64,000 nucleotides of DNA from an uncultured Desulfarculaceae bacterium (GCA_964414345.1 CAYPWF010000010.1:7115-71114); one strand, 5' to 3'. Shown: positions 1,129 to 61,994, counted from the stretch's first letter. Numbers and translations are program-made. The notes: a model not told the origin generated them from the letters alone.

Positions 1129-1243
1129 GCCAAGCCCTGACAAGGCCCATTGGCCGCCGCCCTCCCGAGGAGGTCCAGAAAACTTGACACGAGGGACCCT
1201 CCATGCCAAGATTCCTGCGCCGGGAAATGCCTTTGTTATGGCC

Positions 1244-1441
1244 TAGCCCGCATTATTCACGATGAGTGGGTAATGCGGGGTATCTTAGTGAGATGTTAGG
1301 GCAAACAGGCCCGTACTCCAAGAACAGGCTGATTTTTGATTTCAGATTTGGAGCTGGTTTGAGCCGGGATATATTCAAGTGTACCGGGGGTTTGGGGGCG
1401 TAGCCCCCAAAGTAATAGGCTTTGGAGAATAATCCGAGCTA
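1244..1441 (+). repeat. Copy 1 of the ~196-bp structured intergenic element (complete); starts 116 nt after the aconitase stop, co-oriented
   Basis: TAGCCCGCATTATTCAC..GTGGGTAATGCGGGG 5' hairpin, internal TTGGGGGCgtaGCCCCCAA hairpin, 3' terminus GGAGAATAATCCGAGCTA. Aligns with copies at 11121, 12298, 22880, 44665, 61765 and others. Confidence 0.9.
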
Positions 1442-1485
1442 GGTCAAGGTGCCAGAGGACTCACAACCAAAAGGGGAGGTGCACC

Positions 1486-2436
1486 ATGAGAAAGGCGATG
1501 GGTTTTGTTGTTGCATTGGCTTTGGTTTTGGGAGTGGCCCTCGGGGCTCAGGCTGCGGATGTGAAGCTCATCCTGGCCACAGGTGGCACGGCCGGAACTT
1601 ACTATCCCTTTGGCGGGGCCATGGCCAAGATCTGGAACTCCAAGATCCCTGGCATGAATGTGACGGCCCAGACAAGTGGTGCTTCGGCTGAGAACATCCG
1701 GCTCATAAACAAGAAAGAGGTGGAGCTAGCCCTGGTGCAGAGCGACACCCTGGACTTCGCCTACGCAGGCAAGGAGGTCTTCAAGGAGAAGATCACCTCC
1801 ATGAGCGCCATAGCCGTCCTGTACCCGGAGATAATCCAGGTGGTGGTCAGGGGGGACAGCCCGATTAAGTCTTTTGCGGATCTCAAGGGGATGAAAATCG
1901 GGGTTGGGGCGCCGGGAAGCGGAACCGAGGCCAATTTCCGCCAGCTCCTGGACATCTACGGGATGAAGAAGGAGGACGTGAAGGCGCAGTACCTGTCCTT
2001 TGCCGAGAGTGCGGATCAGTTCAAGGACAAGCACATAGACGCTTTCATAGTCACGGCTGGAATTCCCAACTCGGCCATCATGGACATAAGCACCCAGCAC
2101 TCCATCCGGCTTTTGAACCTCCCGGCAGACATCATTGGCAAGCTCACCCAGAAATACCCCTTCCTCTCCCAGGCCAAGGTGCCTGCCAACACTTACAAGG
2201 GCCAAACAGAGGATGTAAACACCGTGGCGGTCAATGCCGTGCTCATAGTCAGCAACGCGCTCAAGGAGGACGTGGTCTACAATCTCACCAAGGCCCTCTT
2301 TGAGAACCAGGCCGAGTTGGCCTCGGCCCATGCCAAAGGTAAGGAGCTGAGCCTCCAGACAGCCGTCAAGGGTGTCTCCATCCCCTTCCATCCAGGGGCT
2401 GTCAAGTACTACAAGGAGAAGGGTCTCATGAAGTGA
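1486..2436 (+). CDS. TAXI-family TRAP transporter substrate-binding protein
   Basis: Signal peptide MRKAMGFVVALALVLGVALGAQA. Conserved TAXI N-terminus KLILATGGTAGTYYPFGGAMAKIWN. RBS GGGGAGG upstream. Confidence 0.85.
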   Translation: MRKAMGFVVALALVLGVALGAQAADVKLILATGGTAGTYYPFGGAMAKIWNSKIPGMNVTAQTSGASAENIRLINKKEVELALVQSDTLDFAYAGKEVFKEKITSMSAIAVLYPEIIQVVVRGDSPIKSFADLKGMKIGVGAPGSGTEANFRQLLDIYGMKKEDVKAQYLSFAESADQFKDKHIDAFIVTAGIPNSAIMDISTQHSIRLLNLPADIIGKLTQKYPFLSQAKVPANTYKGQTEDVNTVAVNAVLIVSNALKEDVVYNLTKALFENQAELASAHAKGKELSLQTAVKGVSIPFHPGAVKYYKEKGLMK

Positions 2437-3047
2437 GGAGCCTAGAGATGCCGGGGCTCCCCCAGGCTGCTCTAAGGGGCCCTGGCAACTTCCCCAGCAG
2501 GGGCCATTTTCGGGCTGCTGCCTGCGCGTTTTTGATGTCGGCTCTCTTGGGGTTGGCCTTTTTGGTTCCCGTGTTCAAAACCCTGGATGTGGCCGACCCT
2601 GCTGGCGGGAGGCCCTTTTTTCGAGCCCCCATGTGGGGTAAAGAGGAGTTTCAGATCTGCTTCATCCACTCGGTGAACCGAAGGCCCGTGTGCGACAGGC
2701 TTAGGGTGGAGGGGGAAGATCTGCTGATACTCGGTTCCCGCTTTGACTCCTTCGGGGCTGGAATGCCCGATGGCTCAAGTGACGAAGGGGTCCTTCGGCG
2801 CCTCCCGGATGGCTGGCTGGAATGGAGGGTTCAAAGGCCAGTGCCAGAGGTGATCCTGAGGGTCGGCCGCACGGCCGAACACCGGCTTGTGCTAAAAGGC
2901 AAGGAGATACTTCTAAGCCAACTGGCAGAGCCCGGGCAGGCCTTGAGTTTCAGGCCGGGCCGGGCCAGCTTGTGGGAGATCCTGTGGCGGGCAGGGGTAT
3001 GGAGTGAGTCAGGAGAAGGACACGGGGGACAAGGGGCAGCCCGTTGA
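2433..3047 (+). CDS. DUF1850-like protein commonly found between TAXI SBP and fused TRAP permease
   Basis: Position and size between TAXI SBP and permease; hydrophobic N-terminal segment; IHSVNRRPV motif region. True start is probably an internal Met. Confidence 0.5.
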   Translation: MRSLEMPGLPQAALRGPGNFPSRGHFRAAACAFLMSALLGLAFLVPVFKTLDVADPAGGRPFFRAPMWGKEEFQICFIHSVNRRPVCDRLRVEGEDLLILGSRFDSFGAGMPDGSSDEGVLRRLPDGWLEWRVQRPVPEVILRVGRTAEHRLVLKGKEILLSQLAEPGQALSFRPGRASLWEILWRAGVWSESGEGHGGQGAAR

Positions 3048-5001
3048 GGGCTTGGCCGGGCAGGAAGTCGAGACCATCTCCAAGGAGGAGTTGGAGAAGA
3101 TCCTCCAGAAGGTGGACCGGGAGGCTTCCACCCGCAAGCTTTGGGGCGTCCCGCGCTGGATAGTCTACGTCATAGGGGTGGGCTGGTCTGTCTTTCAGGT
3201 CTACACGGGCGCCTTCGGTCTTTTACCTGCCCAACTCCAGCGCTCCATCCACCTGGCCTTTGCCTTTGCACTGGCCTACCTTCTCTACCCAGCCAGGCGA
3301 TCCAAGGGCTCTGGCCGGCTCCAGTGGTATAACTGGCTCCTTGCGGCCTTTGCCGTGTATGTCGGCCTTTACATGGCCATCAACTACACCCGGATCATGG
3401 AGGCGGGGGGGGATTATTCGAGCACGGATTACATCTTTGCAGGGTTGGGGATCCTGTTCACACTGGAGGCTGCAAGAAGGGTGGTGGGCCTTCCCATCAC
3501 CATGATCGCCCTGTGTTTCCTCGTTTACGCTTACTTCGGGCCCTATTTCCCGAGCTTTCTGGCCCACAGGGGCTACTCCCTAGAGCGCATAGCCTCCCAC
3601 ATGTACCTCACCACAGAGGGGATCCTGGGCATTCCCCTAGGGGTGGCGGCCACCTTTATTTACGTGTTCGTGCTCTTCGGCTCCTTTAGGGAAAAGACAG
3701 GACTCGGGCAGCTCTTCATAGACATCTCCAACGCGGTTGCCGGGTGGGCCTCGGGGGGGCCGGCCAAGATGGCCGTGGTCACAAGCGCCCTGGAGGGGAC
3801 CGTGTCCGGAAGCTCGGTGGCAAATACCGTGGAATCCGGGAGCCTCACCATCCCCATGATGAAGAAACTGGGTTACAGGCCAGAGTTTGCCGCGGCAGTG
3901 GAGGCCTCCTCTTCCACTGGCGGCCAGATAATGCCCCCCATCATGGGGGCTGCGGCCTTTATAATGGCCGAGTTTCTCAACATGCCTTACCTGGACATAG
4001 CCAAGGCTGCGGCCATCCCGGCCTGTCTTTATTTTTTCGGGGTCTTCATGGAGGTGCACTTCGAGGCCAAAAGATGCAATCTCAAGGGCTTGAGCAGGGA
4101 TGAACTGCCCAGGTTCGGCCAGGTCATGAGGGAGAGGGGCCACCTCTTCTTCCCCCTGATAGCCATCATCACCTTTCTTTCAGCGGGCTTTACCCCGCTT
4201 TACGCCGCCTTGATGGGGCTTGCGGTCTGCGTGCTGGCAGGAGCCCTGAGAAAATCCACTCGCATGAGCCTCAGGGAGATAGCAGACGCCTTCGAGCTGG
4301 GGGCCAGAAACGCGGTGGGAGTCGCCCTGGCCTGCGCCTCGGCGGGGATCATCATAGGGGTTGTGACCCTCACAGGGCTGGGGCTCAAGCTGGCCAACGG
4401 GCTGGTGGAGCTGGCAGGAGGGAACCTTCTTTTCACACTCTTCTTCACCATGATCACTTCCCTGATCCTGGGCATGGGTGCCCCCACCACGGCCAACTAC
4501 ATCATCACCTCAACCATTGCGGCCCCTGCTGTGATACTGCTGGGTGTGCACCCCTTGGCAGCTCATATGTTCGTTTTCTACTTTGGGATCGTTGCGGACA
4601 TAACCCCGCCCGTGGCCCTGGCAGCCTACGCCGGCTCCGGGATCGCCAAGTCAGATCCCATGAAGACCGGCATCACATCCACGAAGCTGGCCATAGGGGC
4701 TTTCCTGGTCCCCTACATCTTTGTGTACAACCCATCCATGCTGATGGTGGGCACAACGGCACTGGGTCTCATCCAAACCCTGATCACATCATGTTGCGGG
4801 ATGACGGCCATAGGGGCCTCCATGATCGGTTTCTTCTTGGCCCCTATGAGCTGGTGGGAAAGGCTCCTGTTCTTCGGGGGAGGCCTCATGCTCATAGACC
4901 CTGGAACAGCGACGGATGCTGCAGGGTTGGGTCTGCTTGGCCTTGGGGCCCTGTACCAGTGGTCCAAGAAGAGAAAGCACAGGGCTCAGCCCATCTGCTG
5001 A
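3004..5001 (+). CDS. TRAP transporter fused permease (DctQ-DctM fusion, TAXI type)
   Basis: 665-aa polytopic membrane protein immediately downstream of the TAXI SBP; typical DctM-like C-terminal half. Confidence 0.85.
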   Translation: MSQEKDTGDKGQPVEGLAGQEVETISKEELEKILQKVDREASTRKLWGVPRWIVYVIGVGWSVFQVYTGAFGLLPAQLQRSIHLAFAFALAYLLYPARRSKGSGRLQWYNWLLAAFAVYVGLYMAINYTRIMEAGGDYSSTDYIFAGLGILFTLEAARRVVGLPITMIALCFLVYAYFGPYFPSFLAHRGYSLERIASHMYLTTEGILGIPLGVAATFIYVFVLFGSFREKTGLGQLFIDISNAVAGWASGGPAKMAVVTSALEGTVSGSSVANTVESGSLTIPMMKKLGYRPEFAAAVEASSSTGGQIMPPIMGAAAFIMAEFLNMPYLDIAKAAAIPACLYFFGVFMEVHFEAKRCNLKGLSRDELPRFGQVMRERGHLFFPLIAIITFLSAGFTPLYAALMGLAVCVLAGALRKSTRMSLREIADAFELGARNAVGVALACASAGIIIGVVTLTGLGLKLANGLVELAGGNLLFTLFFTMITSLILGMGAPTTANYIITSTIAAPAVILLGVHPLAAHMFVFYFGIVADITPPVALAAYAGSGIAKSDPMKTGITSTKLAIGAFLVPYIFVYNPSMLMVGTTALGLIQTLITSCCGMTAIGASMIGFFLAPMSWWERLLFFGGGLMLIDPGTATDAAGLGLLGLGALYQWSKKRKHRAQPIC

Positions 5002-5052
5002 GCCGCCCTTCTTTCCCAGAGTCCCTGGGTTGCCCCTCCCGGCTTTACGGGC

Positions 5053-6270
5053 TTAACCCCTTTCCTTGAGGGGCTTCCACTCGCACTTGTCAGGGCCGCA
5101 GTAAGAGCCTATGTAATCCGCCTGGGGCCTGTAAAGCTGGGGTTTGCCCTGGGCCTCTCCCAGGCGCTCCTCTATGATGTGAGCCACCCAACCAGAGGTG
5201 CGCGCCACTGCAAAGATGGGTGTGAAGAGGTCCTTGGGGATGCCCATGGCGTTGTATGTGGGGGCGCTGTAGAAGTCCACATTGGTTGGAATTGAGCGGC
5301 CCTTGAGCCTCTGAAATGTCTCTTTGGCCACCCTCTCTATCTCCACCGCCAGCTCGTACCAGTGGGTTTGACCGGTTCTCTTGCCTATGGCTTCGGCCAT
5401 GGGTTTCAGTACCTTCACCCTGGGGTCGTCCACCTCGTAAACCGCGTGGCCCAGCCCCATGATGCGCTTGCCCTCCTGGAGCCTTCTGCTCACCCATTCC
5501 TGAGCCCGCTCCTTGGAGCCCACCTCTTCCAGCATCATCATCACCCTTGTGTTGGCCCCCCCGTGAAGCTCCCCTGCCAGAGAGGCCACGGCAGCAGCCA
5601 CTGCTCCGTAAGTATGTGACCTGGTGGATGCCACAGCCCTGGCCGTGAAAGTGGAGGCGTTGAAAGAGTGCTCTGCGTGAAGGATCAGGCAAACATCCAG
5701 ATCGCGCTCTGTGTGGGTGTCTGCCCTGACCCCCTTGAGCATGCGAAGGAAATCAGCCGCATGTGGCAGGGATGGGTCTGGAGGGATCACGGCCAGGCCC
5801 TTCCTGATCCTCTCCCAGGCGGCCACAATGGTGGGGAAGGCCCCTATGATCCTAAGGCCCCTGTCCACCTCTGCTGGGCGGCTCTCGTCTCGGATGTTGG
5901 GGTCGTGGTCCGCCAGGAAGGCGGCTGCCCCCTGGAGCACGTCCATGGGGGAAGCTGAGCTGGGCCTCAAGCGCATGGACTTTATGATCTCCCCGGGGAT
6001 TTGCCTAAAGTAGGCCAGTCTGGAAGAGAACTCCTTGAGCTCCTCGGCAGAAGGGAGCCTGGCTTCCAGGAGAAGAAAAACCGTCTCCTCGTAAGTGGCA
6101 TTGGCCGCAAGATCCAGCACGTCATATCCCCTGTAAATGAGGACCCCTTTCTTGGGGTCTATCCCGCAGATGAGGGTGTCGGCCACCGGGATATCCCTGA
6201 GGCCTATGTTCTTGATGTCCGTGATGCACTCCATGGGCGTTCCTCCTCCTGGGTTGCCGAAGCTATTCAT
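5053..6270 (-). CDS. gltA: Citrate synthase (Si-type; a 2-methylcitrate synthase cannot be excluded)
   Basis: MGLGHAVYEVDDPRVK (GxGHxVYxxxDPR) and HAEHSFNASTFTARAV...LAGELHGGAN citrate-synthase signatures. Confidence 0.85.
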   Translation of the reverse strand: MNSFGNPGGGTPMECITDIKNIGLRDIPVADTLICGIDPKKGVLIYRGYDVLDLAANATYEETVFLLLEARLPSAEELKEFSSRLAYFRQIPGEIIKSMRLRPSSASPMDVLQGAAAFLADHDPNIRDESRPAEVDRGLRIIGAFPTIVAAWERIRKGLAVIPPDPSLPHAADFLRMLKGVRADTHTERDLDVCLILHAEHSFNASTFTARAVASTRSHTYGAVAAAVASLAGELHGGANTRVMMMLEEVGSKERAQEWVSRRLQEGKRIMGLGHAVYEVDDPRVKVLKPMAEAIGKRTGQTHWYELAVEIERVAKETFQRLKGRSIPTNVDFYSAPTYNAMGIPKDLFTPIFAVARTSGWVAHIIEERLGEAQGKPQLYRPQADYIGSYCGPDKCEWKPLKERG

Positions 6271-6335: not shown

Positions 6336-6556
6336 AGCCAATTATTCACCCCAGAGCATGGCCGGAATTATTCGTGAAGGCCCGGGAGATCGGGGCTACA
6401 CCCCCACGAGCCCCAGGTACGCTTGGAGATATTCCGGCTCAAAGAAAGGCCAAATCTGAAAAAGAAAATCAGAGGGTCTTGGGGCATGGATAGGTTTTTC
6501 CCAATATATCCTCAAGGCAGCAGGCAGGATCCACTCATCGTGAATAATGTGCGCCA
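6336..6556 (-). repeat. Degenerate copy of the structured element, lying in the upstream/5' region of citrate synthase
   Basis: GGTACGCTTGGAGATATTCCGGCTCAAAGAAAGGCCAAATCTGAAAAAGAAAATCAGAGGG aligns with the reverse-orientation consensus. Arm-like motifs AGCCAATTATTCAC, GCCGGAATTATTCGTGAA and TCGTGAATAATGTGCGCC are present. Confidence 0.6.
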
Positions 6557-10195: not shown

Positions 10196-10322
10196 AGCCC
10201 TCATTACTCAAGCTCAGTGTATAATGCGGCCTGTCTCAAGGATATTAGGAGAAACCGGTCCAGGCTCAAAAACACCCTGACTCTCTGTGTCAGACTCGGC
10301 CCTGGCTCGGCTCGGAACATAT
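10196..10322 (+). repeat. 3'-truncated copy of the structured element, starts 61 nt after korC stop, co-oriented
   Basis: AGCCCTCATTACTCAAG ctca GTGTATAATGCGGCCT hairpin followed by GAAACCGGTCCAGGCTCAAAAACACCCTGA...GAGTCGG... homologous to the consensus 5' half. Confidence 0.65.
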
Positions 10323-10446
10323 CTTTCCCCTACCCGATCCCTCCTATCCCGGGTTTTCCCTCCCGCTTCTCTACCTCCAAGTAAACTTTACCTGGGCAAG
10401 GGCGACCAATAGGTTACCGGCTGTTCTTTTCGGCAAGGAGGAACCA

Positions 10447-10824
10447 ATGAAAAGTAATGAAACGAAGAAGAACTCAGGTGTTATACACAGAAGGATTTTC
10501 TCCAATGGCCTCCTAAAAGGAGCAGGCACACTTGCTCTTCTTGGGCTGGCAGTGGGACTTGTAGGCTGCGCAGCCACGGGGGGTGCAGGCGGGGCCCTGC
10601 TGGGTTACGGGATCACAGGCAATGCCAGGGGGGCTGCCCTGGGGGCCGGTGCCGGAATGCTTGCCGGTTCCCTGTTTGATGTAGGGGTCATAAGGCCCCA
10701 CCCCTACTCCTATGGACCGCCGGCCTATTACGGGCCGGCCCCTGGAAGGTGGGTTTATGTGCCCGGGTACTGGGATGCTTATGGCCGCTGGGTCCCACCC
10801 CAGCGTTACTGGGCGCCTTATTGA
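10447..10824 (+). CDS. Glycine-zipper lipoprotein with aromatic/Pro-rich C-terminal tail
   Basis: Lipobox LVGC; G/A-rich hydrophobic glycine-zipper segment; C-terminal YGPPAYYGPAPGRWVYVPGYWDAYGRWVPPQRYWAPY. Confidence 0.55.
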   Translation: MKSNETKKNSGVIHRRIFSNGLLKGAGTLALLGLAVGLVGCAATGGAGGALLGYGITGNARGAALGAGAGMLAGSLFDVGVIRPHPYSYGPPAYYGPAPGRWVYVPGYWDAYGRWVPPQRYWAPY

Positions 10825-10861
10825 AGAAAACATAACGAGGTAGGCTTTTGTTGTTTGGGAT

Positions 10862-10899
10862 TTCGGGCATCCGGTTTCCGGATGCCCGAAGTTTTTTAT
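10862..10899 (+). terminator. Rho-independent terminator after the lipoprotein gene
   Basis: TTCGGGCATCCGG-ttt-CCGGATGCCCGAA perfect 13-bp stem followed by GTTTTTTAT. Confidence 0.85.
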
Positions 10900-11120
10900 C
10901 CTGTTGTTGCAGGGGCCCAAAAAACACCCTGTTCCCCTTGTGCACGCAGTTCTCTTGACTTGCTTCCAAGGAGATTGCTGAATCGGCAAAAAGTCTTTGA
11001 TGAGTCTAAAGTCCTCAGTCATTGGTTTTATCCCTAAGAGCAATTTTCCCTTTTCTTATGAACCAGCCCTACCAACACATGTTGCACACGCACAGCTCCG
11101 ATAACGGGTGCGTATAGCCT

Positions 11121-11298
11121 TAGCCTGCATTATTCAGGATGAGTGAATAATACGGGCTATCTTATTGATGTATTTTGATAAGCCGGTCTGTGCTCAAAAG
11201 CACCCTGATTTTGGTTTCCAGATTTGATCCTGCTCTGAGTCGGAATATGTGGAAGTGGACCGGGGGCTTGGGGGCTTGAGTCCCCAAAGTTACGGGCT
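11121..11298 (+). repeat. Copy of the structured element (3' end truncated by ~20 nt)
   Basis: TAGCCTGCATTATTCAGGATGAGTGAATAATACGGGCT ... GCTCAAAAGCACCCTGATTTTGGTTTCCAGATTTGATCCTGCTCTGAGTCGGAATATG ... CTTGGGGGCTTGAGTCCCCAAAGTTACGGGCT. Confidence 0.9.
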
Positions 11299-11458
11299 GT
11301 ACAGGAGGCATGGCCCTACTGCCCTTCTTTTGCGAAACTCGCTCCCTTTAAAGTAGCGCAACTCGGCTTGCACAAGCCTGAAAGGACCAGACCCCGAGGG
11401 GAGCATCCCACGGGGTCTTGGGTTAAAAAGGAACCGCTGAAATCAGCAGAAGGAGTTT

Positions 11459-11534
11459 TGGCTCCCCGAGTAGGACTCGAACCTACAACCTAGTGGTTAA
11501 CAGCCACCCGCTCTGCCGATTGAGCTATCGGGGA
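11459..11534 (-). tRNA. tRNA-Asn (anticodon GUU), CCA encoded
   Basis: Reverse complement folds as 5' UCCCCGA acceptor / D-arm GCUC..GAGC / anticodon stem GGUGG-CUGUUAA-CCACU (GUU) / T-arm GUAGG-UUCGAGU-CCUAC / UCGGGGA-G-CCA. U1-A72 start as in E. coli tRNA-Asn. Confidence 0.85.
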
Positions 11535-11748
11535 TCTGAGCAGTTCCTAAAGCACCAATCCTAGTCAAAATTTTATACCAGAGGGCACCTCGCTTGTAAA
11601 GCCCGGCACATCTTTCTGTTCTCAGCATGTGAAATGCCAGGTGGGCCTTAGAAGGCATCTGTCCGCTTTCTTTAAGCCATCACCCTGTGACCGCACACGC
11701 TTTTTTACAATGAGGGGGTAGGCAAGGCTTGAGGTAGCACGCCAAAGC

Positions 11749-11812
11749 GTACGAGGGGTTTGGGAGGGGCGTAACCCCCGTACTCAAAGGCTTTGGAAAA
11801 TAATCCTGGCTA
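11749..11812 (+). repeat. 3'-terminal fragment (~64 nt) of the structured element
   Basis: GTACGAGGGGTTTGGGAGGGGCGTAACCCCCGTACTCAAAGGCTTTGGAAAATAATCCTGGCTA matches the consensus 3' end including the GC hairpin. Confidence 0.8.
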
Positions 11813-11937: not shown

Positions 11938-12300
11938 ATGATGGGGCTTGAGGAATTGAGGCAGAGAAAGGACATACTGGTTCAGATCGACTGGGAGCTC
12001 ACCCCCCTTGAGGCAGTGGAGATGTTCGATCACAGGACCGGGGGTTTGAAATCAAGGCTGCAGGTGAGAAGTTACAAGGAGAAGCATTACTTTTTTTGTG
12101 TCGACAATTGGCGGGAAGAGCCACGCTTGGTTCTCAAGGAGCGCTCCATAAAGGAATCCAGGGTAATAGCTGAGGTCTGCGCCCCAAAAGAACTCCTTCA
12201 GGAGTGCATCTTGCAATACGGCGACCGCCAGGGGCTTTTCCCCCCAAGCGAGGCCTTGAAAGAGTGGTTGAGAAAAAATCTTTTCTACCAGAACCCTTAG
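11938..12300 (+). CDS. Hypothetical protein (~120 aa), lower GC, orphan
   Basis: ATGATGG start 6 nt after GGAGG. The ORF track begins at TTG 11842, but the ATG with RBS is preferred. No recognisable domain. The stop codon TAG is the first three nt of the downstream element copy. Confidence 0.5.
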   Translation: MMGLEELRQRKDILVQIDWELTPLEAVEMFDHRTGGLKSRLQVRSYKEKHYFFCVDNWREEPRLVLKERSIKESRVIAEVCAPKELLQECILQYGDRQGLFPPSEALKEWLRKNLFYQNP

Positions 12301-12495
12301 CCCGGATTGTTCTCCAAAGCCCTTAACTTTGGGGGCTCAAGCCCCAAAGCCTCCGGTACACTTCGCGACATTCCGACTCAAAGCAGGACCAGATCTGAAA
12401 CCAAGAATCAGGGTGCTTTTGAGCATAGACCGGCTTCTCAAAACATCTCATTAAGATAGCCCGCATTATCCACTGATCCTGAATAACACGGGCCA
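12298..12495 (-). repeat. Complete copy of the structured element (sense strand = minus), starts 46 nt after the cNMP-binding gene stop, co-oriented
   Basis: Reverse complement gives GGCCCGTGTTATTCAGGATCAGTGGATAATGCGGGCT...CTCAAAAGCACCCTGATTCTTGGTTTCAGATCTGGTCCTGCTTTGAGTCGG...CTTTGGGGCTTGAGCCCCCAAAG...GGAGAACAATCCGGGCTA. Confidence 0.9.
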
Positions 12496-12539
12496 GCAGG
12501 TCCGATGGAGCTTCTTACACCCTCCTGTTGTGAAATAGA

Positions 12540-13022: not shown

Positions 13023-13059
13023 AGGTTCCCTCCCTAAGACCTAGCCTCTTGAGTCCTTC

Positions 13060-22693: not shown

Positions 22694-22879
22694 TCAAAGG
22701 TTGATACGAGCCAGCTTAGAATCCTGAAGAGACAAACTCATTCCTCATGAAACTCAGCTGAATCTTGGGCTTCGGGCCCGGCCGATCTTTTAACCTCAAA
22801 GGGCCCAATGTGCCGGTGTTTGGGGCTCCAGCCCCTAAGGCCAGCGCTTTGTCAAAAAATTCAGCCCCATCAGCTGAGC

Positions 22880-23076
22880 TAGCCCGGATTATTCTCCAAA
22901 GCCCGTAACTTTGGGGGCTACGCCCCCGAACACCCGATGCACTACTATATATTCCGACTCAAAACAACACCAAATTTGAAATACAAAGGCAGGGTGCTTT
23001 TGAGTATGGACCGGTTTGTTCAAACATGTCATTAAAATGGCCCGCACTATCCACTGCGCGTGAATAATGCGGGTTG
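22880..23076 (-). repeat. Complete copy of the structured element downstream of atpC (co-oriented)
   Basis: TAGCCCGGATTATTCTCC...CTTTGGGGGCTACGCCCCCGAA...GACTCAAAA...GGGTGCTTTTGAG...GCCCGCACTATCCACtgcgcGTGAATAATGCGGGTT. Confidence 0.9.
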
Positions 23077-23095
23077 AGCGCTATTCAATCTCATT

Positions 23096-44644: not shown

Positions 44645-44664
44645 GCTTGGCGGCCCTCCAGGCC

Positions 44665-44862
44665 TAACCCGGATTATTCTCCAAAGCCCGCGACTTTGGG
44701 GGCTCAAGCCCCCAAGCCCCCGATACACTTCGACATATTCCGACTCAAACCAGGACCAGCTCTGAAGAGGAAAACAATAGTAATGTTGAGTGCATACTAG
44801 TTTAACCAAGCATGTCATTGAGATAGCCCGCATTATGCACTGATCGTGAATAATGCGGGCTA
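44665..44862 (-). repeat. Complete copy of the structured element downstream of the PocR-like gene (co-oriented), convergent with alaS
   Basis: TAACCCGGATTATTCTCC...CTTTGGGGGCTCAAGCCCCCAAG...GCCCGCATTATGCACtgatcGTGAATAATGCGGGCTA. Confidence 0.9.
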
Positions 44863-44971
44863 ATCTATTTCAGCATGCTCGGGTTTGAACTCAGGCAAGT
44901 CCTGGATTAAAAAATCAGGCCCTTTTTGACCCTCAAGGGATTTTCCCTGGACATTTTGAATTTGCACAGCA

Positions 44972-46703: not shown

Positions 46704-46756
46704 CAACCCGGATTCTTCTCCAAAGCCCTTAACCTTGGGGGCTAGGCCCCAAAATC
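46704..46756 (-). repeat. 3'-terminal fragment of the structured element, ending 9 nt upstream of the Tat-protein ATG
   Basis: CAACCCGGATTCTTCTCCAAAGCCCTTAACCTTGGGGGCTAGGCCCCAAAATC matches the reverse-orientation consensus terminus plus GC hairpin. Confidence 0.7.
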
Positions 46757-56812: not shown

Positions 56813-58577
56813 GGACAAGATACTGGATGCGCCCATAGGCCTGGACGCAGAGGTCCTTGGGGGAAAAGACTTGGGGCCTCTTTCCCCCAGACAGCACTCC
56901 AGCAAAAAGAAAAAAGGGCGGGCTAAGGGTGCCTGGATCCTGGTGGGTTTCTTGCTGGGGGTGGGAGTGGCAGGATTTCTTTTTTGGGAGCTCACCCCCA
57001 GAACCAAAACTGTTTCCAGAGGTGCTCATTCTAGCTCGCTTTTTTCTTATCCGGTCCAGGGAATCAGGGTTCAGAGAACAGGGTCGGACAAAGGGGACGC
57101 GCAAGGCCAAGACTCCTCGGTGCTTTTGAGGGAGCAGACCCTGCGGGTGCGCTATGGGAAGGAAACCGTGAGGTTTGTCTCCGTAGAGCGAGACCCTTCG
57201 ATTTGGGCCCGCATGCTGACGGTGTTCTTGAGCCCGCCCAGATTGTATTTTGAGGGCAGTGTTGTGGAGCCAGGCCAGGACCTCATGGCTGCTACGGCTC
57301 CTGAGAGGAGCCTCACTTATGAGCTTTCATTGAAGAGCCAGCCCGGCGCGGCACCCCTTGCCCGATTTTTCCTGGAGCTGGAGATGAGCGCTGAGACCTG
57401 GGCCGCCAGGGCAAAGCAGCTCAAGGAGCCCCAGGCCCAGAGGGCATGTCTGGAGCAGGCCCTGAAGGCGGAGCCGGGCAACGTGCATGTTCTGTTGGCT
57501 TTGGGGAACCTACTTTGGGAACAAAACGAGCCCTTGGCGGCAGCCGAGAGGTTCGAGGAGCTGCTAAAGCGCTCCCCAAAGCGCAAAGAAGCTGCAGCAG
57601 CCCTTGCCTCCATCTACCAGAAATCCAAGCCCAAGAGGGCCCTGGAGATGTACAGGCTGCTTAGCGAGATAGACCCGGATCGTAGAGTTGAGCATCTCAG
57701 GCAGATGGCCGAACTCCAAGAGCGTCTCGGGATCTCCCCGGTTGAGACCTACAGGAAGATCCTGTCCCTCAAGAAAAACGATCCGGACGCCCAAAGGGGC
57801 CTTGACACACTTTATGCCAAGCAGGTGGAGAAGGCCCAGCAGGCTGAAAAAAAGGGGGAACTCTCCCAGGCCGTCCAGCAGATGAAGCAGGCTTTGGAGC
57901 TTCATCCCACCAAGAAAGGGAAGGCCTATCTGGCTACTCTTCACAACAACCTGGCATACTCCTTAGCCAAGCAGGGCAAGTACAAGGAGGCCATACCTCA
58001 CTATGAGGCATCTCTGAAGCTGGAAGAAAGCGCCGTCACACACTTGAACTTGGCTGATGCCTACGCCAAGACCAAACAAATCGACAACGCTCTCAAGAGC
58101 TTGGAGAAGGCCTGGGGCATGAAACCCAAAGAGCAAGAGGTGGTCAAGAATCTCCTTTTTCTTTGGGCCGAACTACTCACCCAGAAAAAGGATCTTCACG
58201 GAGCCATAGCCAAGCTCAAGGAACTGCACGCCAGGTTTCCAAAGGATCCGGAGGCGGCCAAGATGCTGGCGGCAGCCTACTGGAATCAGAAGGATTTGGC
58301 CAAGGCCCTGGAAGTGCTCAAAAAGGTGCCTCAGCTTATGAGTTCGCACCCACCCAAGGCAAGGGCCGAGATCCACGGTATGTTGGGGGACCTGTACAGG
58401 GCCTTGGGAGATCAGGAAAAAAACGTTAAAGGCCGCATATCCCGTTATGACGAGGCGCTAAAAGAGTACAAGGCGGCTTTGGTCTTGAACAAAGGCGACA
58501 CTCAGATTCAAAAAAAGAAGGAAGAGCTGGAAAAGGAACGAATGGCCCTGGTGAAACGCTCCCTTAGAGCCTCCTAA
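56781..58577 (+). CDS. Tetratricopeptide-repeat protein with N-terminal TM anchor
   Basis: N-terminal TM helix then multiple TPR units; stop codon TAA coincides with the first nt of an element fragment. Confidence 0.7.
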   Translation: MRRTKVPPLDEDKILDAPIGLDAEVLGGKDLGPLSPRQHSSKKKKGRAKGAWILVGFLLGVGVAGFLFWELTPRTKTVSRGAHSSSLFSYPVQGIRVQRTGSDKGDAQGQDSSVLLREQTLRVRYGKETVRFVSVERDPSIWARMLTVFLSPPRLYFEGSVVEPGQDLMAATAPERSLTYELSLKSQPGAAPLARFFLELEMSAETWAARAKQLKEPQAQRACLEQALKAEPGNVHVLLALGNLLWEQNEPLAAAERFEELLKRSPKRKEAAAALASIYQKSKPKRALEMYRLLSEIDPDRRVEHLRQMAELQERLGISPVETYRKILSLKKNDPDAQRGLDTLYAKQVEKAQQAEKKGELSQAVQQMKQALELHPTKKGKAYLATLHNNLAYSLAKQGKYKEAIPHYEASLKLEESAVTHLNLADAYAKTKQIDNALKSLEKAWGMKPKEQEVVKNLLFLWAELLTQKKDLHGAIAKLKELHARFPKDPEAAKMLAAAYWNQKDLAKALEVLKKVPQLMSSHPPKARAEIHGMLGDLYRALGDQEKNVKGRISRYDEALKEYKAALVLNKGDTQIQKKKEELEKERMALVKRSLRAS

Positions 58578-58612
58578 GCCGCATTGTCCACTGATCTTGA
58601 ATAATGCGGGCT
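58575..58612 (+). repeat. 5'-hairpin-only fragment of the structured element wedged between TPR gene stop and tRNA-Pro 3' end
   Basis: TAAGCCGCATTGTCCACtgatcttGAATAATGCGGGCT; 2 nt separate it from the tRNA-Pro 3' terminus. Confidence 0.75.
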
Positions 58613-58614
58613 GA

Positions 58615-58689
58615 TCGGGGAGAGGCGATTTGAACGCCCGACCTCTTGCTCCCGAAGCAAGCGCTCTGACCAGTCTGAGCTACTCCCCG
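58615..58689 (-). tRNA. tRNA-Pro (anticodon CGG)
   Basis: Reverse complement CGGGGAG-UA-GCUC...GAGC-G-CUUGC-UUCGGGA-GCAAG-AGGUC-GGGCG-UUCAAAU-CGCCU-CUCCCCG-A cloverleaf; CCA not encoded. Confidence 0.85.
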
Positions 58690-59974: not shown

Positions 59975-60115
59975 CTGCTCAAAATCAATACTCAAAAGCA
60001 CCCCGCCTTTGGGTTTCGGATTCAATCCTGCTTTGGGTCGGAACATGTGCAAGTGTACCGGGGGCTTGGGGGATTGGCCCCCAAAGTTGCGGGCTCCAGA
60101 GAATAATCCGGGTTA
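59975..60115 (+). repeat. 5'-truncated copy of the structured element immediately after plsY (co-oriented)
   Basis: ATACTCAAAAGCACCCCGCCTTTGGGTTTCGGATTCAATCCTGCTTTGGGTCGGAACATGTGCAAGTGTACCGGGGGCTTGGGGGATTGGCCCCCAAAGTTGCGGGCTCCAGAGAATAATCCGGGTTA. Confidence 0.85.
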
Positions 60116-61724: not shown

Positions 61725-61764
61725 AACAAGAATCTCCCAGGGGGCAAGGACGGTCACTCATGAT

Positions 61765-61960
61765 TAGCCCGCATTCTTTACGCTTAGTGGATAATGCGGG
61801 CTATCTTAATAAAATATTTGAATAAACTGCTCCATACTCAAAAGCAGCCTGATTTTGGGTTTTAGATTGGGTGCTGCTTTGAGTAGGAGTATATGGAGAT
61901 TTTCCGGGTGCTTGGGGCCTAGCTTCCAAAGTTACGGGCTTTGGAGAATAATCCGGGCTA
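61765..61960 (+). repeat. Complete copy of the structured element 40 nt after hisF (co-oriented), convergent with the radical SAM gene
   Basis: TAGCCCGCATTCTTTACgcttaGTGGATAATGCGGGCTATCTTAAT...ACTCAAAAGCAGCCTGATTTTGGGTTTTAGATTGGGTGCTGCTTTGAGTAGG...GCTTGGGGCCTAGCTTCCAAAGTTACGGGCTTTGGAGAATAATCCGGGCTA. Confidence 0.9.
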
Positions 61961-61994
61961 AGGCGGCTGGTCACGAGGGTGATGGGGTTGAGGG

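Follow-up and report, generated by a model that had tools for sequence, protein, structure and literature searches.

Bacterial non-autonomous DNA transposons (MITEs) such as Correia/NEMIS, Nezha, Chunjie, ERIC and RUP are short, non-coding, intergenic elements that occur in many dispersed copies (PMC3184786). They have terminal inverted repeats like those of insertion sequences (IS), a target duplication, hairpin-forming interiors, and filled and empty sites. The element described here resembles them in all of these respects, but its sequence is unrelated to theirs, its ends are of the IS1380 type rather than the IS630, IS5 or ISNpu3 type, and one of its ends carries a doubled, tail-to-tail terminal repeat. 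Chunjie, a deltaproteobacterial MITE of Geobacter, has 21-bp repeats and a 9-bp duplication (PMC3184786). By this description Chunjie is set apart from the present element, which has 12-14-bp repeats and a 4-bp YTAR duplication, and identity of the two was rejected.

Members of the IS1380 family of insertion sequences (ISPa33, ISSp1, IS1247, ISEcp1 and ISPme1) have CCCGGAT… termini and a 4-bp duplication, which is CTAA/CTAA in the ISPa33 type; a 5-bp duplication is reported for IS1247, as against 4 bp here. The present element differs from the family in carrying no transposase gene, and has only its ends in common with the members sampled. Eukaryotic piggyBac transposons duplicate a palindrome-like 4-bp target, TTAA, and have CCC…GGG termini and asymmetric ends with extra sub-terminal repeats. 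IS1380 transposases have been paired with piggyBac as its prokaryotic counterpart (PMC5718144, PMC10813416). The CCC ends of the present element are similar to those of piggyBac, but its target is YTAR rather than TTAA, its host is bacterial and there is no sign of precise excision. By analogy, the CCCG ends together with the YTAR duplication would fit the kinship of IS1380 with piggyBac. A further likeness is to REP and REPIN elements: near-perfect palindromes of 26-39 bp, found as hairpin H1 of the element and as solo units, look like REP doublets and lie at gene ends. Unlike REP/REPIN, each is made up of two DDE-transposon ends and goes with a 4-bp target duplication, and they show neither an association with RAYT nor a conserved GTAG head.

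The repeat family, its ends and its target site

The window, a 64-kb stretch of DNA from an uncultured Desulfarculaceae bacterium, had been described from its sequence as holding a ~196-bp repeat family in 12 copies. An nhmmer profile made from five full copies regained every one of these in the window (E 1e-63 to 2e-6), with one additional weak fragment. The 17-nt terminal motif TAGCCCGCATTATTCAC has 20 matches in the 64-kb window at three or fewer mismatches, compared with 0.09 in dinucleotide-preserving shuffles. The six full copies align over ~197 columns with a mean column identity of 82%. Stop codons interrupt five of the six reading frames in every one of these copies and the remaining frame (+2) is open in a single copy, so that no frame is open throughout, as had been claimed. 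Likewise, Pfam scans and homology searches found no transposase in the 64-kb window, in line with the statement that none is nearby. All copies in the window are intergenic and lie amid housekeeping genes, the neighbors being aconitase, citrate synthase, 2-oxoacid:ferredoxin oxidoreductase, ATP synthase, Mrp antiporter, alaS, recA and two tRNAs, among others. The copies, with the parts of the reference copy, are as follows:

1243-1442, plus strand: full reference copy between the aconitase and TRAP/NMT1-like genes (nhmmer hit 1244-1441)
1243-1246 and 1439-1442: target duplication CTAG of the reference copy
1247-1260: left terminal repeat of the reference copy
1266-1279: inner inverted copy of the repeat in the reference copy, pairing with the left repeat to give H1
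about 1315-1363: H2 of the reference copy
1392-1410: H3 of the reference copy
1427-1438: right terminal repeat of the reference copy
6361-6554, minus strand: full-length but degenerate copy (70.6% identity to the consensus), lying upstream of the citrate synthase gene
10196-10322, plus strand: 5' fragment (model 2-130) with the POR gamma gene on one side and a small lipoprotein gene on the other
11121-11300, plus strand: copy (model 1-179) in which the right terminal repeat is missing, with TTAG on its left flank
11744-11812, plus strand: 3' fragment (model 132-197), complementing fragment 10196-10322
12297-12496, minus strand: full copy (nhmmer 12298-12494; element proper 12301-12492)
22879-23077, minus strand: full copy (nhmmer 22880-23075) between atpC and a response-regulator gene
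44664-44863, minus strand: full copy (nhmmer 44665-44862) directly downstream of alaS
44864-44928, plus strand: weak partial copy (model 1-93; nhmmer hit 44824-44928, E=1.8e-5)
46705-46754, minus strand: 3'-end fragment (model 147-196), with a gene start 10 bp downstream
58574-58616, minus strand: solo H1 palindrome of 33 bp (hit 58576-58612), two terminal repeats tail to tail
59984-60115, plus strand: copy truncated at its 5' end (model 66-197), lying between the neighbors plsY and YacP-like gene
61764-61961, plus strand: full copy (nhmmer 61765-61960) between His_biosynth-family and radical SAM genes, with decayed flanks TTAG / CTAA

The fragments at 10196-10322 and 11744-11812 are on the same strand, 1.4 kb apart, and complement each other exactly (model 2-130 and 132-197). 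Between them lie the small Gly-rich lipoprotein gene, the copy at 11121-11300 and a tRNA-Asn (11459-11534, minus strand). In two relatives (L153 and L154) the same interval holds other genes and no tRNA, which marks 10196-11812 as a variable spot. The weak copy at 44824-44928 is on the strand opposite to that of the copy at 44665-44862, and the two apparently have an H1 palindrome in common; they may be a head-to-head pair or the relic of a second insertion.

The true termini are CCCG[C/G]ATTATTC…GAATAAT[C/G]CGGG. The 15-bp terminal inverted repeat that had been noticed is present in the consensus, with its single mismatch (C/G) at position 8. The preliminary description set the boundaries 3 nt too far out on either side: the outer TAG and CTA are part of a 4-bp target duplication, so the element proper, which starts with CCCG and ends with CGGG, is about 190-192 bp long. 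The four bases beyond CCCG…CGGG are nearly always YTAR, and the sites in use are CTAG, CTAA and TTAG. The flanks were counted in 43 short units with the same ends and with YTAR on both sides, among the metagenome matches listed. The flank pair was CTAG/CTAG in 16 of these 43 units, TTAG/TTAG in 7 and CTAA/CTAA in 7; the inverted arrangements TTAG/CTAA and CTAA/TTAG occurred in 1 and 0, respectively. Non-palindromic YTAR flanks are hence repeated directly in 14 of the units listed and inverted in 1, which identifies YTAR as a 4-bp direct target duplication and rules out the TA-only duplication of the IS630 type. Within the window, the duplication is intact in two of the five full copies, 1247-1438 (CTAG/CTAG) and 44668-44859 (CTAA/CTAA), and has decayed in the others. 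The non-palindromic duplication kept by the second of these consists of CTAA at 44664-44667 and CTAA at 44860-44863.

Full copies are 73-83% identical to each other in pairwise comparison and 84-88% identical to the consensus. To judge by this divergence the ~192-bp family is old, and it is probably inactive in the window, no longer moving. The signs of age include the 12-16% decay from the consensus, the presence of several truncated copies, and one insertion that is common to relatives at 80-90% nucleotide identity.

IS1380-family insertion sequences with the same ends

Public metagenome contigs were scanned with the 15-nt end motif TAGCCCGSATTATTC alone, which returned at least 120 loci. 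The interior sequence of the window element was absent from all of the loci listed. Many of them have two inverted copies of the motif 70-400 bp apart with unrelated interiors between, and at least 17 encode homologues of IS1380-family transposases. In at least eight of the loci listed (L030, L084, L090, L110, L123, L125, L126 and L129) two inverted copies of the motif enclose the transposase gene, making complete elements of 1637-1837 bp. The 502-aa protein of L090 matches Pfam DDE_Tnp_1_4 (5.8e-118) and NCBIfam transpos_IS1380, "IS1380 family transposase" (4.5e-99). The metagenomic IS1380 elements have the identical 12-nt end CCCG[C/G]ATTATTC; the complete ones sampled have in common with the window element only the ~14-bp ends, not the interior. 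Another locus, L070, is an internally deleted, 1.2-kb derivative. The transposase clade of L090 is very large: a threshold of E<=1e-30 gave 6319 protein clusters, most of them from contigs of ~1.7-2 kb.

Related ends are found in annotated plasmid copies of the family, whose proteins are at most 35% identical to those of the metagenomic clade with the identical ends:

ISPa33-type, Pseudomonas putida pKF715A: CCCGGATTTCTCATGA…TCATGAGAAATCCGGG, flanked on both sides by CTAA
ISPa33-type ends, short form: CCCGGATTTCTC…GGG, flanked on both sides by CTAA
IS1380-family copy, Acidovorax pEP1: CCCGGATATTTCAC…GTGAAATATCCGGG, flanked on both sides by CTAG
IS1380-family copy, Methylocystis plasmid: CCCATCTTATTCGCG…, preceded by CTAG

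Since IS1380 elements from both metagenomes and plasmids have the same or related ends, the window element carries ends of the IS1380 type. The autonomous elements with matching ends encode IS1380-family DDE transposases, which contradicts the IS200/IS605 (TnpA/TnpB) parent that had been proposed as a source. No IS1380 transposase of the window's own lineage was present in the window or in the same-lineage DNA examined; a homology search with L090 returned its close relatives only, those named being Acidimicrobiia and Planctomycetota, with none of the window's lineage.

An origin as a MITE of the IS630/Tc1-mariner type (Correia-like, with a TA duplication) or of the IS5 type would account for the TA that is found at every junction. 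YTAR is the classical IS5 target, and two loci with the motif, L024 and L070, contain IS630-like ORFs. The bases next to the TA, however, repeat directly (CTAA/CTAA 7 and TTAG/TTAG 7 versus 1 inverted) and not as complements. The IS630-like element of L024 is nested in a short unit and has 62-nt inverted repeats of its own, and that of L070 lies outside the unit. All eight listed complete elements with these ends encode transposases of the IS1380 type, and we regard an IS630 or IS5 origin as extremely improbable. The L024 unit itself (3161-4856) is 1.7 kb long with IS1380-type ends; its nested IS630-like element has a 460-aa ORF, and repeats at 3226-3287 and 4695-4756.

The ~192-bp element is thus very probably a non-autonomous DNA transposon with IS1380-family ends. 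The preliminary description had likened it to a MITE, and this part of it has held up: this is a short, non-coding element that has terminal inverted repeats and a target duplication, is present in many dispersed intergenic copies with filled and empty sites, and has the ends of an autonomous IS. We infer that it was mobilized in trans by an IS1380 transposase of the window's lineage and that it has no host function. In this scheme a DDE transposase of the IS1380 type, produced from another place in the genome or present in an ancestor, would have recognized the 12-14-bp ends CCCG[C/G]ATTATTC(AC) and inserted the element at YTAR (CTAG, CTAA or TTAG), duplicating those 4 bp. H2 and H3 would be internal palindromes of the founder sequence. 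Internal palindromes are usual for MITEs.

Hairpins and other short families

All three hairpins reported earlier, H1, H2 and H3, are present in the consensus. H1 is CCCGCATTATTCAC-5 nt-GTGGATAATGCGGG, 33 bp in which two terminal repeats are placed tail to tail. At least 38 short families of about 60-400 bp with unrelated interiors have the same ends (loci L014-L133), and in other families with such termini a tail-to-tail repeat module of 26-39 bp is found at one end or at both. As the module recurs in other families and also occurs alone, H1 is best read as a minimal unit of "two ends only" and not as an RNA device; in the 192-bp element it is best read as the doubled, asymmetric left end. 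The module is carried by a nine-member family of ~210-230 bp, and a family of that length has a terminal-repeat hairpin at both ends (L037, L049, L071, L073, L075, L082, L097 and L133). Another short family with CCCG[C/G]ATTATTC ends has 14 members among the matches listed. Solo palindromes consisting of the terminal repeats only, each flanked by CTAG/CTAG, were seen in L053 (1957-1982, 26 bp) and L103 (2020-2058, 39 bp). These may be minimal mobile units that resemble REPs.

Such palindromes are what could suggest a REP/REPIN element spread by a RAYT (HUH/Y1), or a palindrome-associated element derived from IS200/IS605: H1 is a near-perfect palindrome of 33-39 bp that also occurs solo, in the manner of a REP doublet. 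HUH/Y1 transposition leaves no target duplication. The 4-bp direct duplication seen here therefore contradicts the REP-like reading that had been entertained. In addition, the terminal inverted repeats are true ones, identical to the ends of DDE (IS1380) elements, the Pfam hits of the window's main ORFs include no Y1 transposase or TnpB domain, and no IS605-associated RNA was matched in Rfam. We give this origin almost no credence. A derivation from IS200/IS605 as a PATE or omega-RNA element was likewise tried and rejected, given the true inverted repeats, the duplication and the lack of an IS605-related Rfam match.

The hairpins could also belong to a family of structured small RNAs or cis-regulatory RNAs. 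H1-H3 would then be helices under selection, and each repeat a gene or a UTR module instead of a transposon relic. The consensus folds into the three hairpins, and does so somewhat better than shuffled sequence (z about -2.1). Three copies lie between two genes of the same direction, and in each of them the sense strand matches that of the genes. In the named structure, assessed on only 9 copies, 87.0% of cells are paired, slightly above the 86.0±0.5% of column shuffles (a value reached by 20 of 500). For covariation, however, these copies score 0.169 versus 0.165 in the column shuffles (167 of 500 as high), and the covariation term of RNAalifold is positive, that is a penalty, with both 5 and 9 copies (+2.4). 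The two strands fold equally (z -2.15 and -2.14), as DNA palindromes would. Both orientations are represented among the copies, as are convergent, divergent and tandem gene junctions. The orthologue in L154 is so decayed that it can hardly be recognized, and H1 is explained as a doubled transposase-binding end. At the gathering score Rfam matched only two tRNAs in the whole window, and relaxed E-values over one copy gave noise; the absence of a relevant match in either scan agrees with the earlier failure to place the element in a named family. A structured RNA, offered as an alternative in the preliminary description, is on this evidence highly improbable: the covariation is penalized, the pairing may be taken as no better than that of column shuffles, and both strands fold alike. 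The hairpins would rather be properties of the founder DNA, the aligned copies bearing no sign of upkeep as RNA.

Filled and empty sites, gene ends and meaning of the family

DNA 99.6-99.9% identical to the window is present in several JGI, ENA and Logan metagenome assemblies. Differences in copies at the strain level were sought in these same-species assemblies, which have the same copies everywhere or break at them; the copy at 22879-23077 was found in six of six other assemblies of the species. The nearest named relative is the Desulfarculaceae MAG JBBIOJ01, whose coding DNA is about 80-87% identical and which has diverged family members (L003, L005). When a genome collection was scanned with a 23-nt pattern from the interior, no more than three matches proved true, all of them in Desulfarculaceae MAGs and none in the window's own genome, and a search of plasmids, phages and viral contigs with the consensus or the internal pattern gave none. 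Contigs of the same species from other samples often end within the element (L134, L136 and L137), near window positions ~1384-1441 and 44665-44862, which indicates that the repeat fragments assemblies of the organism.

Two sites are filled in some lineages and empty in others. At the first, the window has the copy 12301-12492 after the TAG stop of a DVU0772-family gene, in a 239-bp spacer to a convergent gene for a cNMP-binding protein. L152 (89% nucleotide identity) has an element here in the same orientation, and so has L154 (the JBBIOJ01 MAG), where it is heavily decayed; the spacers measure 233-254 bp in the three lineages. The site is empty in L153 (GCA_900174595.1), where the genes are 13 bp apart; this empty site is too diverged to display a clean single YTAR. 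At the empty site in L153 (4345-4409) the ORF is four codons longer, which suggests that insertion or later decay may have trimmed the C-terminus of the DVU0772-family protein. The second site is the spacer between the cNMP and mrp genes, which is empty and 37 bp long in the window (13023-13059), L152 and L153, and is 151 bp long in L154, where it holds a partial copy (5118-5206). Five related contigs, with ~14-21 kb of synteny each, have no copy where the window has six. That filled and empty sites differ by lineage indicates that copies were gained at different places in different lineages, at least one of them long enough ago for several lineages to share it. Beside aconitase/NMT1 and POR/lipoprotein no clean empty site was found, the intergenic DNA of the relatives being too diverged for alignment. 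A TRAP/TAXI-type operon (NMT1-like, DUF1850 and fused DctM; 1129-5052) and the copy 1244-1441 lie between aconitase and citrate synthase in the window and in L139/L140. Both are absent from the closer MAG L138 (11183-11222) and from L141/L142, in which the gap between aconitase and citrate synthase is 25-40 bp.

YTAR contains TAA or TAG, which the duplication restores, and the element can thus land on a stop codon and leave the protein unchanged. Of 119 YTAR flanks among the units listed, 13 serve as the stop codon for an open frame that is 250 codons or more in length, as against 2.2% of all YTAR sites in the same DNA (binomial p=3e-6). In the window the stop of the upstream gene serves as flank for two copies. 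The TTAG flank (12297-12300) of the copy at 12297-12496 includes the TAG stop (12298-12300) of the DVU0772-family gene. The solo H1 at 58574-58616 has the flanks CTAA / CTGA, of which CTAA holds the TAA stop (58575-58577) of a TPR gene, and it adjoins the 3' end of a tRNA-Pro. The excess of stop codons is most simply explained by target preference together with purifying selection, and not by function; regeneration of TAA or TAG by the duplication is a simple reason for tolerance at gene ends.

The number of copies at the 3' ends of genes may also be read as a sign of domestication, in which a MITE that arrived by transposition is now kept as a terminator or insulator, as a stabilizer of mRNA 3' ends or as a protein-binding site. 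Copies of full length are still present although they differ from the consensus by 12-16%, and the insertion at the DVU0772 stop codon has been kept at similar length in three lineages of 80-90% nucleotide identity. For inert DNA, this long retention of full-length copies, an orthologue among them, is somewhat unexpected. In one copy, H1 and the T-rich stretch that follows it were scored as terminator-like. Against domestication, orthologous retained copies diverge freely in sequence, several copies are truncated, scans for promoters and terminators gave no consistent motif among the copies, and the preservation of stem pairing (the 9-copy comparison above) seems no greater than chance. We consider domestication improbable, and prefer the reading of the family as a MITE with IS1380-family ends and without a host role.

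Searches of the literature for MITEs tied to IS1380, and for repeats of Desulfarculaceae, found none. The particular family and its link to IS1380 do not seem to have been described, while in kind it is an ordinary bacterial MITE that leaves current concepts of bacterial mobile DNA unchanged. The family accounts for an abundant repeat that breaks metagenome assemblies of a Desulfarculaceae-like organism, its exact boundaries can be used for masking and annotation, and it connects the bacterial relatives of piggyBac, IS1380, with a MITE family whose YTAR target is defined. In the at least 120 contigs sampled, CCCGSATTATTC ends and a YTAR target were seen around dozens of unrelated interiors, and the 26-39-bp palindromes of "two ends only" mimic REPs and land preferentially on stop codons. 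It is conceivable, if rather doubtful, that the window family is one visible part of a very large superfamily of piggyBac-like (IS1380-type) MITEs, so far undescribed, among environmental bacteria. If that were so, and if some copies were kept for a host function, the superfamily would represent a route by which DDE transposases give rise to REP-like palindromes and gene-end modules.
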